Below are positions 30,401-35,181 of a DNA stretch of 64,000 nucleotides, piece after piece. Source of the stretch: Candidatus Binatia bacterium (GTDB lineage Bacteria; Desulfobacterota; Binatia; UBA9968; CAXXLF01); assembly GCA_963664015.2 (NCBI GenBank), contig CAXXLF010000002.1, positions 1,088,001-1,152,000 of the forward strand, in the 5' to 3' direction. Under the pieces are notes generated by a model, which saw nothing but the letters and a program-made list of their open reading frames with translations, made no database searches and was not told the DNA's origin. The stretch's first letter is position 1. Each line of letters begins with the position of its first letter. The translations under genes were made by a program, and so were the position numbers.

Positions 30401-30767
30401 GATCGAAACCTCGTTTGTTTTGTTGCTGCTTTAGAAAGAAAGACAGGTTCTTTCCTTGGATCTAAAGATTTTAATAGTTCTGGCCTTGATGTCAACCCAA
30501 CGGCGGCGACCGCGGAGGGCCAGGCCCCCGAGCCTACAATTTCCTCGGGGATCGAGCCTCCGGTTCGGCTGAGCTCACCCTCGAAGCCAGGCCTTGGCAA
30601 TAGGCAGATGAATATTTGAAGCGGTCGGATCGGATACCTGCGGTCTTTCGCCTCGCTCCCCTTCGGAATAACACCACTGGGCTAAGGGGGCTTGGAATTC
30701 TTTCTTTTCCTCTTGTTTTTCATGCCGATTATTGGCTAAAGATTACCTATCGAAAGGAAACAGTCCT

Positions 30768-31883
30768 ATGGCCAAGCCGGAACAGACCTTTGATCAATGG
30801 TGGGTGGGCAGCCACTACATGAAATTCGTCGAGCAGGAGGGGGCACCCCTTTATGAAGGGAGTTATCTCCTGGACATGCAAACCGTCCCCCTTGGAGACT
30901 GGGAACGGAGGGGGGGGAAAGTCGCCTACACCCGCCTGGCCAACCAAGAGCGTCTGAACCTTCAAATCGTGGAGATCCCTGCCAAAGGACAGCTCAAGCC
31001 CGAGCACCACATGTACGAGGCCGTGATGTACGTGATCAAGGGGGCCGGAGCCACCGAGATTTGGCAGGAAGGAGAGCCCAAACAGACCATCGAATGGTCC
31101 GAAGGATCACTGCTCGCCATACCGCTCAACGCCTGGCACCAGGAGTTCAACAGCTCGGGAAGCGAGCCCTGCCGCGTGGTCTTCGGAACCAACATGGCCC
31201 AGGTGATAAACCTCTACCACAACATGGACTACGTTTTTAAAAACCCCTTCTCCTTCAAAGACCGCTACAACTGCCGGATGGAGGGTTACTACAGCGACGA
31301 GGGAAAACACTGGAACCTACGGCTCTTTGAGACCAATTTTATTCCCGACATTCGGAACTTTGGCCTGGACGAGTGGGCGGAAAAGGGCACACGCACCTCT
31401 ATCATGCGCCTCTACATGGGCAACGCAACTTCTCAGATCCACATCCTGGAAGTCTCCGAAGGGACCTATGTCACGGCGCACCGGCATGGCGCGGGCGCCC
31501 ACGTGATGATCGTCGACGGCGAGGGTTACGAGCTTCTATTTATGCCCGGTGAAGAGAAGGACCCGGCCAAAAGGGTCAAGCTGCCGGTCAAGCCCTACAG
31601 CGTTATTTCGCCCATCCTCAACCAATACCACCAGCACTTTAACACGGGGAAGGTCCCGTTTCGGCAACTCGCCTTCAAGGGTTGGGAGCCCAGTGCGGTC
31701 ACCGTCAACGCCAAAGGCAAGTACGATCCCGTTGGCGCAGCGCGGAGCGACAATCCCCACGCCTATTCGTTCAAGCTCCGCTACGACGAGGAAGACCCGG
31801 CTGTACGGGAGGATTATTACGCCGAGTTGGAAAAAAACGGTGTGGACCTTCGGCTCCCGCCGCTGGACCAGGGTCCCGGATGA
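30768..31883 (+). CDS. Bicupin protein, paralog 4
   Basis: EIPAKGQLKPEHHMYE, LNAWHQEFN, YVTAHRHGAGAH, YHQHFNTG, YDEEDP. Confidence 0.85.
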   Translation: MAKPEQTFDQWWVGSHYMKFVEQEGAPLYEGSYLLDMQTVPLGDWERRGGKVAYTRLANQERLNLQIVEIPAKGQLKPEHHMYEAVMYVIKGAGATEIWQEGEPKQTIEWSEGSLLAIPLNAWHQEFNSSGSEPCRVVFGTNMAQVINLYHNMDYVFKNPFSFKDRYNCRMEGYYSDEGKHWNLRLFETNFIPDIRNFGLDEWAEKGTRTSIMRLYMGNATSQIHILEVSEGTYVTAHRHGAGAHVMIVDGEGYELLFMPGEEKDPAKRVKLPVKPYSVISPILNQYHQHFNTGKVPFRQLAFKGWEPSAVTVNAKGKYDPVGAARSDNPHAYSFKLRYDEEDPAVREDYYAELEKNGVDLRLPPLDQGPG

Positions 31884-31964
31884 TCGGCTCCCGTCACGAC
31901 GGTACATTTACAGCCCAAGGTCGTCGTTGTTAATCGTGATTGATCAACCGGACTAGAGTTTTCC

Positions 31965-33191
31965 TTGCTTAACAAAAGCGTCATTTCGGTTTTGTCCTTG
32001 GCCTTCATAATCACGTTCGGCTATGGGCTCATCTTACCCAGCCTGTCCCTGTACGCGGTTTCGCTGGGCGCCAGCCGTTCTTTTATCGGATTCATCGTCT
32101 CCATATACGCTTTATCCCAGCTCCTGGCCCAGATCCCCGCGGGCCGCTTCGCGGATCGTTTGGGGCGAAAGAATTTCATCCTTATCGGTTGTGCGGGCCT
32201 GGCCTCTGCCGCCGCCCTGAACAACTTTGCCTCGGAACCGACCCACTTTTTCATTTTCCAGGCCCTCGCCGGTGCATCGGCGGGCTGCATATTCCCCTCA
32301 CTCATGGCCACATTAAGCGAGTCTGCCAAAGCCAATGTGCGGGGCAAGTTGATGGGCACCTTCAGCACGGTTTTCTTTCTGGGCATGGGGCTGGGGCCAT
32401 TTGTGGGCGGACATGTCTCCACAGCGTTCGGATTTCTCGCTTCGTTCAACCTCTGGTCCGTAACCGCGATCCTGGCCGGGATAGTCGCAGCGTTGACTTT
32501 CGAAGGGGCGCCGAAGAAATCGGCCTCTCAGCTAGTGGGGGACCGCGGATCGCCAAAAGTGGTCAAGAGTATGGTTCAGCCCGGGCTATTTCCCACATTC
32601 ATAGCAACCCTCACCATGCGTGCCAGAGGGGGGTTTTGCGGCAGCTTCAATAACTCCATTCTGCCCCTCTACGTCGCCGTGCTATTCAACGCCACGCCCA
32701 AGATGATCGGGGGCCTCATGCTGGTCCATGCGTTGGGACTGGCCTTCTTTAACATTCCCGGAGGAATTGTAGCCGATCGAGTGGGTCGTAAATGGCCTGC
32801 AATCGCTGGATCTCTGGTCGCCACCACGGGAGTTTTTTGGTATTCATTCCCGGCCGGCTTTTGGGCGTTGCTGGCAGCGGTGGGACTGGCCGGAGCGGGC
32901 TCCGCCTTTTCATCGCCCGCCCTCTCGGCATTGACAGCGGATATTTCGAACCCCGAACGGCGGGCCGAAGCCTTCGGTTATATTCTCAGTTCATTTCACG
33001 TCGGTATGATTCTGGGCTCGACCATATTTGGCGTAGTCGCCGATATCATCGATCTTCCCGGTGCCGTTCTGGCCTGGGGCGTTACCAGCCTCTTGCTCTC
33101 TCTAGTCGGCCTTTTGATCCGCGAGCACGGCTCCGTACCCGCCACGGCGAGCGTCCCCCAAAAGGCAGCCCAGAGCGCCGTCCGCCTATAG
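31965..33191 (+). CDS. MFS transporter
   Basis: GRFADRLGRK, RGKLMG, GIVADRVGRK. Confidence 0.9.
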   Translation: MLNKSVISVLSLAFIITFGYGLILPSLSLYAVSLGASRSFIGFIVSIYALSQLLAQIPAGRFADRLGRKNFILIGCAGLASAAALNNFASEPTHFFIFQALAGASAGCIFPSLMATLSESAKANVRGKLMGTFSTVFFLGMGLGPFVGGHVSTAFGFLASFNLWSVTAILAGIVAALTFEGAPKKSASQLVGDRGSPKVVKSMVQPGLFPTFIATLTMRARGGFCGSFNNSILPLYVAVLFNATPKMIGGLMLVHALGLAFFNIPGGIVADRVGRKWPAIAGSLVATTGVFWYSFPAGFWALLAAVGLAGAGSAFSSPALSALTADISNPERRAEAFGYILSSFHVGMILGSTIFGVVADIIDLPGAVLAWGVTSLLLSLVGLLIREHGSVPATASVPQKAAQSAVRL

Positions 33192-33228
33192 CCCCTTACC
33201 GGCAACCGCTCAACAGAACGATCTCAGC

Positions 33229-33446
33229 TTAAGAATATTACCGCAGAGGCGCAGAGGTCGCAGAGAATTCATTTTTTGTTTGTCGGGAGACGACGACAAA
33301 CAAAAACTTGGCTCTTCTAAAGCGTAAGTCTTTTGCCCAATCGCCGTCTCCCGATTGGGCAAAACTTCTTCCCTCAGCGTACTCTGCGTCTCTGCGGTGA
33401 AATATCCGAATCCTTATCTGCGATAATCTGCGGTGAATAGTCTTAA
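33229..33446. mobile_element. MITE/REP-like 218-bp element with TTAA-ended inverted repeats and twin internal hairpins
   Basis: TTAAGAATATTACCGCAGA ... TCTGCGGTGAATAGTCTTAA; internal perfect 13-bp stems at 33273-33306 and 33331-33364. Mobility is inferred, not shown. Confidence 0.65.
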
Positions 33447-33496
33447 CGCTTTGCGCCGTAAACGCAATTTCAGAGGAAATCTTTGAATATGTTTGT

Positions 33497-34000
33497 CTAG
33501 TCCTTATAGAGCCGGCCGCGATCGGTCTTTTTCCTGTCCCGGTCGAACCCCATCACCGGAACTCCGTATCCACAGCTCGTCATGGTGGATGTCACTTCGA
33601 TGTCAATGACCTGACGCGCCTTCGGCCCCATCTCGACCGCTGGTTTGCCCAACAGTCGCTCCGCTATGGGTGATTCCTCGATGTTCGTGACCGTCGCCTT
33701 ACCATACAGACGAACGACGGCGGCGTTTTTTCCCTCGAAGCAGGAGACCATAACGGTAATTGGCCCCCCGGTTCTGACGTGGCGCGCGGTTTCGTTGCCG
33801 CTGCCGAAATAATCCAGGAAGGCAACGTGATTAGCCGATAGAATGTGAAGCGGGACACCGCCTTTGGGTGAGACATTGACCGGACCTGCCCCATCGGAGC
33901 CCGATTGAAGTTTGGGATCAGCGGTAGCGACGAAAAACAGCTTTGCCCTATTGATAAGCTCCGCCTGTTCTTTAGTAATCGACTTGTAAAACTGTGACAT
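33497..34000 (-). CDS. Pyridoxamine 5'-phosphate oxidase-like FMN-binding protein
   Basis: LFFVATA, VNVSPKG, GSGNETARH, TSCGYGVP; start MSQFYK. Confidence 0.88.
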   Translation of the reverse strand: MSQFYKSITKEQAELINRAKLFFVATADPKLQSGSDGAGPVNVSPKGGVPLHILSANHVAFLDYFGSGNETARHVRTGGPITVMVSCFEGKNAAVVRLYGKATVTNIEESPIAERLLGKPAVEMGPKARQVIDIEVTSTMTSCGYGVPVMGFDRDRKKTDRGRLYKD

Positions 34001-34233
34001 GCTTTCCTCCTGCCCAACCGACTGGTTCAAACCCAAAGGAGTCGTTTATCCCTACCCACTAACTCCGGTACAGCTCTGATTGCAAGGCCACACAGTAAAC
34101 GATTCCTACGATGAGGGCACTAGCAGGTTGTTTCGAATGAGGCTTTTTCAGCAGCCTGCACGTGCCATCTGGCCAATTGGATACTGTTCGTGATATAGAC
34201 GCTTGGAGAAATTGCCAGATTAAAGGAGATGCC

Positions 34234-35181
34234 ATGAGCACTGAAAAAAAGGTTGCGTGTGGACTCATTGGCCCATTGAGTCTAAACAAGTCAACGGTCG
34301 ATCCGGATGAAATTAAAGCTTACTTCCAGCGCGCCGAGGAACTGGGATTTGACAGCGTCTGGTTGCCGGAACAGTCGGGTTTCAGAGGCAAGGTCGGCTC
34401 GCTGGAGAGCATGACCGTATTGAGCTACGCGGCGGCAGTGACCACACGGCTCAAATTGGGCTACGCAGTGATGTTGCTCAATCTGCGCAATCCCATGCAC
34501 GTGGCCAAAGGTTTGGCGAGCATCGACCAGTTGAGCCAGGGGAGGTTAATTTTAGGAGTGGCACTGGGGGCTTCCACCGCGGTCTATAGCGCATACGGTT
34601 TGGAGCCCGAGCACCGGGTAACGAGATTCAACGAGGCGCTCAATTACGTTAGAGCCCTGTGGACTGAAGAAGACCTGACCTTCGAGGGGAAGTATTGGCA
34701 GGTCAAAAACGCCAACCTCCTGCCCAAGCCATTTCAAAAACCCCATCCGCCCCTCTGGTTTGGCGGCAGCGCACCGGCGGCCCTGAAACGAGCCGTGCGT
34801 CGCGGCACCGGCTTTATCGGAGCCGGTTCCTCATCCACCGCTGATTTCAGATCCCATGTGCAAACCATTCTGAAAGAGCTTGATGCGGCCGGAAAGGACC
34901 CGAAGGACTTTGCCATTGCGAAGCGGGTCAACCTCGCCGTGGATAAAGACAGTGACCGCGCACATAGGCGGCTCAGGGAATGGTTCGGCGGATATTACAA
35001 CAAGCCCGACCAGGCCGACCGTGTGGCGGTGTGGGGCAGTCCCGAGCAAGTCATTGAAGGACTACAGGAAGTCATCTCCGCCGGCGCTCGCCTCGTAATC
35101 TTGAGTCCCGTCTTCGACGGCATGGAGCAGATGGAAATTCTGGCTAGCCAAGTAGTTCCGCACATCACTGGCGTGAAGTAG
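34234..35181 (+). CDS. LLM-class (luciferase/F420-type) oxidoreductase
   Basis: AEELGFDSVW, DQLSQGRLILG, PKPFQKPHPPLWFGG; RBS AAAGGAG. Confidence 0.9.
   Translation: MSTEKKVACGLIGPLSLNKSTVDPDEIKAYFQRAEELGFDSVWLPEQSGFRGKVGSLESMTVLSYAAAVTTRLKLGYAVMLLNLRNPMHVAKGLASIDQLSQGRLILGVALGASTAVYSAYGLEPEHRVTRFNEALNYVRALWTEEDLTFEGKYWQVKNANLLPKPFQKPHPPLWFGGSAPAALKRAVRRGTGFIGAGSSSTADFRSHVQTILKELDAAGKDPKDFAIAKRVNLAVDKDSDRAHRRLREWFGGYYNKPDQADRVAVWGSPEQVIEGLQEVISAGARLVILSPVFDGMEQMEILASQVVPHITGVK

Follow-up and report, generated by a model that had tools for sequence, protein, structure and literature searches.

A twin-hairpin intergenic element of a Candidatus Binatia genome as a candidate gene-less copy of a small GxxExxY nuclease cassette

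The spacer at positions 33229-33446 of a 64,000-nucleotide stretch of a Candidatus Binatia genome (contig CAXXLF010000002.1; the whole stretch is called the window here) holds two neighboring perfect 13-bp hairpins, H1 and H2, whose stems differ in sequence and whose 8-nt loops are complementary to each other. We found that this element belongs to a repeat family, that the stems of the family covary while its loops are conserved, and that in relatives a gene of the GxxExxY type (PDDEXK_3; PF13366) lies between the same two hairpins. We propose, with a probability of about 0.6, that the element represents a small palindromic GxxExxY nuclease cassette in a gene-less, non-autonomous copy. An earlier note on this DNA had singled out the hairpins; what it missed, to judge from the sequences compared below, is their apparent role as inner end-modules of a cassette built around a PD-(D/E)XK nuclease gene.

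Complementary hairpins nested within inverted repeats

Direct reading and a repeat search agree with the earlier note on the core of the element. Both stems are perfect and equally long, the H2 loop is complementary to the H1 loop at 7 of 8 positions, and with the closing bases included the segments 33283-33296 and 33341-33354 are complementary over 14 nt (93%, the claimed 13/14). The imperfect outer stem, previously given as about 28 bp, is real, and its measured extent is 31 nt (33235-33265 with 33373-33403, 81% complementary). The terminal inverted repeats (TTAAGAATATTACCGCAG from 33229 and TTAAGACTATTCACCGCAG, given as reverse complement, ending at 33446) do finish in TTAA, and their description needs a correction: compared with full copies in relatives, the window copy is asymmetric, with a short and degenerate left arm and a long right one. 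Full copies in a relative have two arms of ~75 bp and additional palindromic layers farther out. TTAA stands at both ends of every full copy that was read, where a terminus and a target duplication look the same in the sequence. As the earlier note had it, the element sits between convergent genes, which encode a major facilitator superfamily (MFS) transporter (31965-33191, + strand) and a PNPOx-like protein (33497-34036, - strand). Its parts are as follows.

33203-33228, no strand: possible degenerate remnant of a further outer layer, following the stop codon of the MFS gene
33229-33239, no strand: left terminus, short-arm form TTAAGAATATT (sequence reading)
33240-33265, + strand: left arm, three tandem 8-9-nt units ACCGCAGAGG CGCAGAGG TCGCAGAG, purine-rich strand
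33273-33285 and 33294-33306, + strand: arms of H1, 13 nt, 100% complementary, 8 nt between; purine-rich loop GGAGACGA
33307-33330, no strand: linker of 24 nt, read as an empty gene slot on the basis of the gene-bearing copy on contig G004:C6
33331-33343 and 33352-33364, + strand: arms of H2, 13 nt, 100% complementary, 8 nt between; pyrimidine-rich loop CCGTCTCC
33373-33402, + strand: right arm, reverse complement of TCA + CCGCAGAG ACGCAGAG TACGCTGAG, pairing with the left arm
33403-33446, no strand: right outer arm in its long form ATATCCGAATCCTTATCTGCGATAATCTGCGGTGAATAGTCTTAA, containing CGCAGAT-type repeats and a terminal TTAA

The left arm also reads as a short tag and three tandem 8-nt units (TTA-CCGCAGAG-GCGCAGAG-GTCGCAGAG), and the outer stem of the window copy is an octamer arm of the CGCAGAGG type. 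The short left end (GAATATTCTTAA as reverse complement) terminates seven copies in the window's own genome (G000) and in a relative of the same family (G004), while TCTGCGGTGAA occurs twice, as a direct repeat, in the right outer arm. In a by-eye comparison with flanks in G004 and G000, the segment 33203-33228 resembles, with some uncertainty, a TTCAACAGAACGACTTCAAC module found outside full copies in relatives.

The RNA fold predicted for 226 nt of the + strand has an energy of -96.2 kcal/mol (z = -9.9, a value that none of 200 shuffles reached), and that of the - strand -93.1 kcal/mol (z = -8.2). Perfect hairpins with a stem of at least 13 bp and an 8-nt loop number 18 in the whole 3.51-Mb genome and 0 in three shuffled megabases, and 11 of these 18 belong to the element family (list read by eye). 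The hairpin arrangement is far beyond chance. An intrinsic terminator was considered and rejected: the stems of both strands end in A-runs, and no U-tract follows.

A family of mosaic repeats in the window's own genome

The search for further copies that the earlier note had suggested was productive. BLAST of the element against its own genome returned 35 pieces at 24 loci, and a covariance model built on hairpin pairs (R1) gave 34 matches on the two strands combined, which are listed for 17 loci. With about 17 loci in its genome, the element is no single-copy RNA gene. The copies are mosaics that combine a TTAA-ended outer repeat rich in CGCAGAT words, an octamer arm (three CGCAGAG-type words of 8 nt) and its inverted counterpart, and, between the two arms, H1, a linker, and H2. 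All 14 twin-hairpin and 5 single-hairpin copies are intergenic, in tandem, convergent, and divergent spacers alike; four of them fall inside open reading frames (ORFs) of ~105 aa that span the element and that we take as spurious.

The outer repeat is itself abundant. No non-simple 12-mer is more frequent in the genome than one of its words, TTAACCGCAGAT (26 occurrences), and counts of outer-repeat ends reached 146 in G004 and 44 in G002, another relative compared here (0 for a control pattern). The outer repeat alone builds ~101-bp mini-elements that have a short hairpin center of the CTGGCCGGTCCGGCCAG type and neither arms nor twin hairpins; examples in the own genome are G000:C2:1598925-1599025, 1634585-1634685, and 1639989-1640089.

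Single "arm plus hairpin" copies occur in the own genome, and in the genome G001 the order is permuted to H2, arm, TTAA, arm, H1 at three loci or more (G001:C309:2500-2780 and two more contigs). The simplest description of the unit is a purine-rich arm of three words, spaced 8-9 nt, followed by a purine-loop hairpin, with the twin element consisting of two such units face to face. The loops are complementary, then, because the twin hairpins are one kind of unit in inverted order, and loop complementarity by itself is no proof of loop pairing. The stems of H1 and H2 differ, and therefore each hairpin folds on itself and not on its partner.

Compensatory changes in the stems and a conserved loop core

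The stem covariation for which the earlier note had proposed a check is present. Across 34 aligned copies from six genomes, 96.5% of the hairpin cells pair, compared with 86.1% in shuffles and 39-57% when partners are slid, and both sides have changed in 7 of the 13 pairs of H1 and 9 of the 13 pairs of H2, counts that rest on few independent lineages. At least 10 different stem pairs occur across lineages. Between lineages, compensatory changes have replaced both stems, and the structure is under selection.

In 78 strand-readings, the stems measure 11-16 bp (mostly 13), all loops have 8 nt, and the linker has 17-27 nt in most readings (extremes, 6 and 34). The loop types are GGAGACGA/TCGTCTCC, TGAGAGG/CCTCTCA, and GAGATG/CATCTC, with mixed pairs such as GGAGACGG with CATCTC, and all share a core of GAGA in one hairpin and TCTC in the other. 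Loop types co-vary between families. Homologs keep the loop complementarity both in the 78 strand-readings and among weaker model hits: of 37 weaker-hit loci in another five genomes, 27 have a purine-loop hairpin together with a pyrimidine-loop one on a single strand, a proportion biased by a model built on hairpin pairs, and the other 10 have one hairpin only. The two stems of one element always differ, so that a 34-bp H1-H2 duplex is prevented and only the loops are left complementary.

A GxxExxY nuclease gene between the same hairpins

A clue to the nature of the element comes from G004, in which a longer copy (G004:C6:1083127-1083790) consists of an outer end, an arm, H1, a GxxExxY gene, H2, and an arm, with the same stems as in the window. 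The earlier note had suggested looking for ORFs enclosed in longer copies, and this is such a case. Two high-scoring segment pairs (BLAST) align the copy to 33221-33309 and 33321-33401 of the window, at 88% identity each and 462 bp apart. Because the gene lies in G004 between the same H1 and H2, the 24-nt linker of the window copy corresponds to an empty gene slot. An adjacent, intact G004 copy of the gene, bracketed by outer repeats, encodes a 132-aa protein that scores 144.6 bits against TIGR04256 and, by reading, has the E of GxxExxY and a D...ExK motif. A comparison of this protein with solved structures returned no relative by sequence.

The PF13366 model finds 5 genes in G004, 9 in G061 (a genome labeled Desulfobacterales), 3 in G087, and 6, 2, 1, 4, and 1 in five further carriers. 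At 6 of the 28 PF13366 loci examined, in five genomes, hairpins of the two kinds, purine-loop and pyrimidine-loop, flank the gene, one on each side; five of these genes lie in four genomes other than G004. The hairpins are placed inside the arms at five of the six loci and outside at one. In two related families, octamer arms bracket the gene at no fewer than 9 of 13 PF13366 loci, mostly ~15-40 bp away on each side, and the arms of one such locus (L254) are of the CGCAGAG type.

Arms and gene also go together at the level of genomes. Of 61 relatives, 18 have the arms and 12 have PF13366, with 10 having the two together, while a sister family (f3) has 0 of 28 genomes positive for either. The association is significant by Fisher's exact test (P = 2e-5 overall and P = 0.018 within one family), with significance overstated in that kin are not independent.

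Other PDDEXK_3 genes are flanked by different hairpins with 12-bp stems and loops CGGAA/GTCCG, GAACGAA/GTTCG, and GGACGGA (L242, L245, and L246 on G061:C99; L266, L270, and L271 in the genome G085), in one case as arrays with ~124 bp spacing. Several hairpin types unrelated to one another seem to move with the PDDEXK_3 gene family.

Distribution across relatives and the phylum

The element has a match in 18 of the 61 related genomes. Both hairpins are restricted, among these relatives, to the window's own family, in which three of the four other genomes match. One sister family has the arms only, as a plain long hairpin with a 20-30-nt loop, in 14 of 28 genomes, and in the third family (f3) the element was found in 0 of 28.

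A wider scan used the two loop sites alone, with stems left unspecified and one genome per species. It gave 55 stretches, of which, after reading of the flanks, 32 are family members and 23 are unrelated GC-rich sequences. The family members are spread over Candidatus Binatia metagenome-assembled genomes (MAGs; 14 loci), a Desulfobacterales-labeled MAG (16 loci), a MAG labeled "delta proteobacterium" (one locus), and a MAG labeled "Nitrospirales" (one locus). The R1 model has 116 matches on both strands in the Desulfobacterales-labeled G061, 17 in G001, 12 in G062, and 2 in G063. Matches occur in 14 of the 41 genomes searched around G061 (itself counted). A phylum-wide sample of 150 other genomes has matches in 8, which belong to five families beyond the window's own. 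Since one genome, with the same coordinates, is common to the G061-centered set and the phylum sample, both sets lie within one phylum. The superfamily is scattered through that phylum.

Probable mobility of the element

Comparison of an orthologous spacer with flanks that are 88-89% identical showed turnover: the outer arm layer is common to G004 and G002, and inside it G004 alone has a TTAA-ended twin-hairpin element, with an unrelated filler of ~150 bp in G002. In a further genome (MAG8), three near-identical copies of a related outer layer are flanked by CTAAG/CTAAG, CTAAG/CTAAG, and CTTAG/CTTAG. In contigs from public sequencing runs, arms are covered at 34-199x versus about 4x for their flanks; the joints in these contigs belong to different family members, whose arms enclose different cargo (16, 31, or 83 letters), and the contigs of one run stop inside the element. 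The copies appear to spread as mobile DNA, and the turnover of the spacer suggests transposition of the twin-hairpin layer.

The window locus itself lies in a variable spot that extends from a cupin gene to a luciferase-like monooxygenase gene (window 30732-35181; L162-L165). The conserved genes that flank the locus are 0.3 kb apart in G002, 1.9 kb in G004, and 2.3 kb in the own genome. The spot contains the MFS gene, the element, and the PNPOx-like gene in the own genome and a formylglycine-generating-enzyme-like ORF (read by eye) with other repeats in G004.

A proposed cassette and the points that weigh against it

We propose that the full cassette would consist of terminal repeats, an arm of three 8-nt units, a GAGA purine-loop hairpin, a gene for a GxxExxY nuclease of ~125-130 aa (PDDEXK_3, PD-(D/E)XK fold), the complementary pyrimidine-loop hairpin, and the inverted arm. 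H1 and H2 would be the two inner end-modules of this cassette, with "arm plus hairpin" as the repeating unit. Either extruded from DNA or single-stranded, both hairpins could serve as a pair of sites that the nuclease of the cassette itself recognizes or cuts. The search for PF13366 genes gave none in the own genome, and the window copy is therefore an orphan. It would be inert, unless the host has taken it over as a transcript-end or processing structure.

Several observations weigh against this proposal. The G004 gene that shares the window's stems has its frame broken once (one TAA), from either decay or long-read error. G002, like the own genome, has no PF13366 hit, though both carry copies of the element, and two PF13366-positive relatives have no arm match. 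Only 6 of the 28 PF13366 genes have GAGA/TCTC hairpins, many having arms alone or other hairpins; because most of the genes do without them, the hairpins are better seen as an accessory module than as a requirement. The purine loop lies upstream in the sense of the gene in all five cassettes with hairpins inside the arms, a polarity that fits a role at the RNA level as well as or better than a DNA site and that could also reflect shared descent. The invariance of the loops in the 34-copy alignment is a matter of ascertainment, as the loops there were fixed by the search pattern, a bias that the weaker model hits do not share. The earlier note had proposed a look for empty sites in relatives, and no clean one for the twin-hairpin layer was found in three synteny comparisons; these gave a variable island, a deletion that also removes a transporter gene, and a replaced inner layer, none of which defines the ends.

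In a bolder form of the proposal, the cassettes would represent an undescribed class of selfish elements driven by a tiny PD-(D/E)XK (GxxExxY) nuclease. Their ends would be units of an iterated-word arm and a hairpin, whose purine and pyrimidine loops pair (as kissing RNA or as extruded DNA) and join the ends for cutting, copying, or RNA closure. We put this forward tentatively, as a conjecture with the odds against it.

What is new in these observations is a pair of hairpins with conserved complementary loops at the borders of a gene, whose stems are the same whether a copy bears the gene or lacks it, and stem covariation that extends phylum-wide. PDDEXK_3/GxxExxY is a large family of prokaryotes and viruses, and the classification paper that names PDDEXK_3 gives its function as "Unknown." A defined DNA shell with two constrained hairpins at the gene borders offers a concrete and cheap assay substrate for such a nuclease. 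The cassette would also explain a very common type of intergenic hairpin repeat that breaks short-read assemblies and, if the loop-loop pairing is true, would be an example from nature of a mobile cassette with pairing between its ends built in.

Alternative explanations

The element could instead be a module that works at the RNA level. The arms would pair in the transcript and the duplex would be cut, as RNase III cuts rRNA intervening sequences; the hairpins would cap the 5′ and 3′ ends of the nuclease mRNA, their loops would kiss and thereby close the RNA or control translation, and gene-less copies would persist as transcript-end or processing structures between host genes. The polarity of the cassettes speaks for such a module: in the gene sense, a Shine-Dalgarno-like GGAG/GAGG purine loop lies upstream and a pyrimidine loop downstream in all five inside-arm cassettes. 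Mixed-type loop pairs checked by eye keep at least 5 contiguous complementary bases, the differing stems block a long H1-H2 duplex and leave the loops free, the predicted folds are very stable on both strands, and the 14 twin and 5 single own-genome copies are all intergenic. One metatranscriptome contig bears a family member, a weak point that does not show transcription. The polarity, however, may be inherited rather than selected, and in G087 and G001 the hairpins lie outside the arms. Nor did we detect a preferred orientation with respect to the gene upstream (in the tandem spacers of two genomes, 13 against 6; hand count, not significant) or a strand asymmetry of stem mismatches on the purine-loop strand (G.T 21 versus A.C 34; not significant). 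Some of these points, namely, the many copies, the use of both orientations, and the symmetry of the mismatches, together with the single-hairpin and permuted versions, weigh against a stand-alone RNA gene. We regard an RNA-level module as unlikely, at something like one chance in a handful.

A classical miniature inverted-repeat transposable element (MITE) would have its TTAA-ended outer inverted repeats as the ends of a DDE-transposase insertion sequence (IS), with arms and hairpins as passive cargo. The earlier note's view of an element that is bounded by terminal inverted repeats, resembles MITEs and bacterial interspersed mosaic elements (BIMEs), and belongs to no described family has held up, and several features do suit a MITE: long imperfect terminal repeats that always end in TTAA, the 146 and 44 such ends in G004 and G002, the ~101-bp minimal versions with other cargo, and the related outer layer in MAG8 with target duplication within CTNAG. 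Against this, the search for an autonomous element, which was no exhaustive census, found no transposase-bearing copy, and ordinary genes lie within the one 2.7-kb pair of outer ends that was inspected in G004. The ends of the sole multi-copy IS in the own genome (4 copies) bear no relation to these. Compensatory stem changes and loops conserved across families are not what passive cargo would show, and one G004 copy has a GxxExxY gene bracketed by outer repeats of this same kind. A plain MITE is improbable on these grounds.

Least probable, to the point where we give it hardly any weight, is a repetitive extragenic palindromic (REP) or REPIN-like element (a REP doublet) mobilized in trans by a Y1 HUH transposase of the REP-associated tyrosine transposase (RAYT) type, with the hairpins acting as single-stranded DNA: inverted doublets do form one long hairpin, like REPINs, three iterated units beside a conserved-loop hairpin recall by analogy the origins of HUH Rep proteins, and most carriers have Y1 plus helix-turn-helix (HTH) genes of 320-350 aa, but the own genome has no Y1 gene above cut-off (the best is a 245-aa relic of 22.4 bits, or 21.0 bits for the ORF alone), 0 R1 hits lie within 1.5 kb of 13 Y1 loci in five genomes, Y1 is present in 24 of the 28 f3 genomes, none of which has the element, neither a GTAG nor a CGTC tag is present, and stems and loops are of other sizes than in described REPs. 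The same absence of Y1 above cut-off and of nearby Y1 genes, the counterpattern in f3, and a search of the own genome that found no TnpB zinc ribbon speak against the earlier note's suggestion of a substrate for an HUH-type enzyme. Derivation from IS200/IS605 was rejected as well, since the IS200-type copies in G004 end in unrelated GC-rich hairpins.

Other repeats and mobile genes encountered

The multi-copy IS of the own genome is present as four near-identical ~1.5-kb copies (G000:C1:807261, C1:1239738, C1:1247345, and C2:423810), one of them with a 31-nt insertion near its left end; each has a 429-aa ORF with a weak match to the integrase core (rve, 20 bits). The 245-aa Y1 relic (G000:C1:436074-436811; L104:1051-1788, - strand) combines weak Y1_Tnp and DnaA C-terminal HTH matches, has HLQ in place of HUH, and adjoins a gene judged NusG-like by eye; its relatives across the order are single-copy and 320-360 aa long. 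G004 has 20 or more copies of an IS200-type transposase gene of 149-150 aa with GC-rich subterminal hairpins (L148, L151, and L156), of which G000 has none above cut-off.

A separate GC-rich palindrome of the CCCTCGAC.GGCTCGGG.CCCTGAGCC.GTCGA.GGG type is nested within the arm of several own-genome copies of the element (for example, G000:C1:745040-745100, C1:840520-840600, and C2:1002050-1002140). Outside the window, 264 of the 265 dinucleotide microsatellite tracts of the own genome fall in G000:C2:1-160000; they are (AC)n or (GA)n tracts of 12 nt or more, up to 282 nt, at a local GC content of 48-51%. At C2:160.7-164.7 kb, several genes from the beginning of contig C1 recur as duplicates in inverted orientation. 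The initial 160 kb of C2 looks like a foreign or mis-joined assembly segment.

Comparison with known systems

Searches of Rfam with the window region and 20 variant loci gave chance-level hits only (E of 0.07 or more), and paper searches found no published description of the element, although repeat catalogues may exist in supplements.

Among the nearest relatives in organization are REPIN-RAYT systems, described, in the parts of the literature consulted, as REP doublets with a single-copy domesticated transposase (PMC3116915, PMC5581495). As in those accounts, the repeats here are short, intergenic, and palindromic, with tens of copies, inverted doublets that form a long hairpin, and singletons as remnants, and they are tied to a small low-copy gene that is far outnumbered by gene-less copies. 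The doublet feature is present in that the arms pair over 31 nt at 81% and that single units and permuted doublets occur. In contrast to REPIN-RAYT systems as described there, the gene encodes a GxxExxY protein of the PD-(D/E)XK fold rather than a Y1 HUH transposase and has its place within the repeat, not next to it, each arm is built of three 8-nt units in tandem rather than a 20-40-bp palindrome with a GTAG/CGTC tag, and there are extra hairpins with conserved complementary loops.

The CGTC REPs described by Di Nocera et al. (2013; PMC3733652) have, in the sections consulted, 8-9-bp stems, 4-5-nt loops, and the tag at the unpaired end. Like such GTAG/CGTC-tagged REPs, the elements studied here are dispersed intergenic hairpin repeats, mostly head-to-head dimers, and CGTC is present in the pyrimidine loop. 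They differ from the REPs in that account by their 13-bp stems, their 8-nt loops, and a conserved motif within the loop, and a terminal GTAG/CGTC tag is absent from the element units.

ORF-bearing intervening sequences of 23S rRNA, such as the Coxiella intervening sequence (PMC4990558, as far as that account was consulted), have inverted termini that form a stem around a small ORF. The likeness is that of a small selfish unit in which such a stem encloses a small ORF of unknown role. Those sequences are located at helix 25/45 of 23S rRNA and are excised by RNase III, whereas the element lies between protein-coding genes (MFS and PNPOx-like).

With MITEs and mosaic BIME-type elements, the element shares terminal inverted repeats, an intergenic location, a modular nested make-up, and the lack of coding capacity; it differs from them in that no matching autonomous DDE element was found and in its internal hairpins, which are under structural selection. 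Compared with plain octamer-arm GxxExxY cassettes, this lineage adds the paired 13-bp GAGA/TCTC hairpins between arm and gene, as well as the TTAA-ended outer layers.

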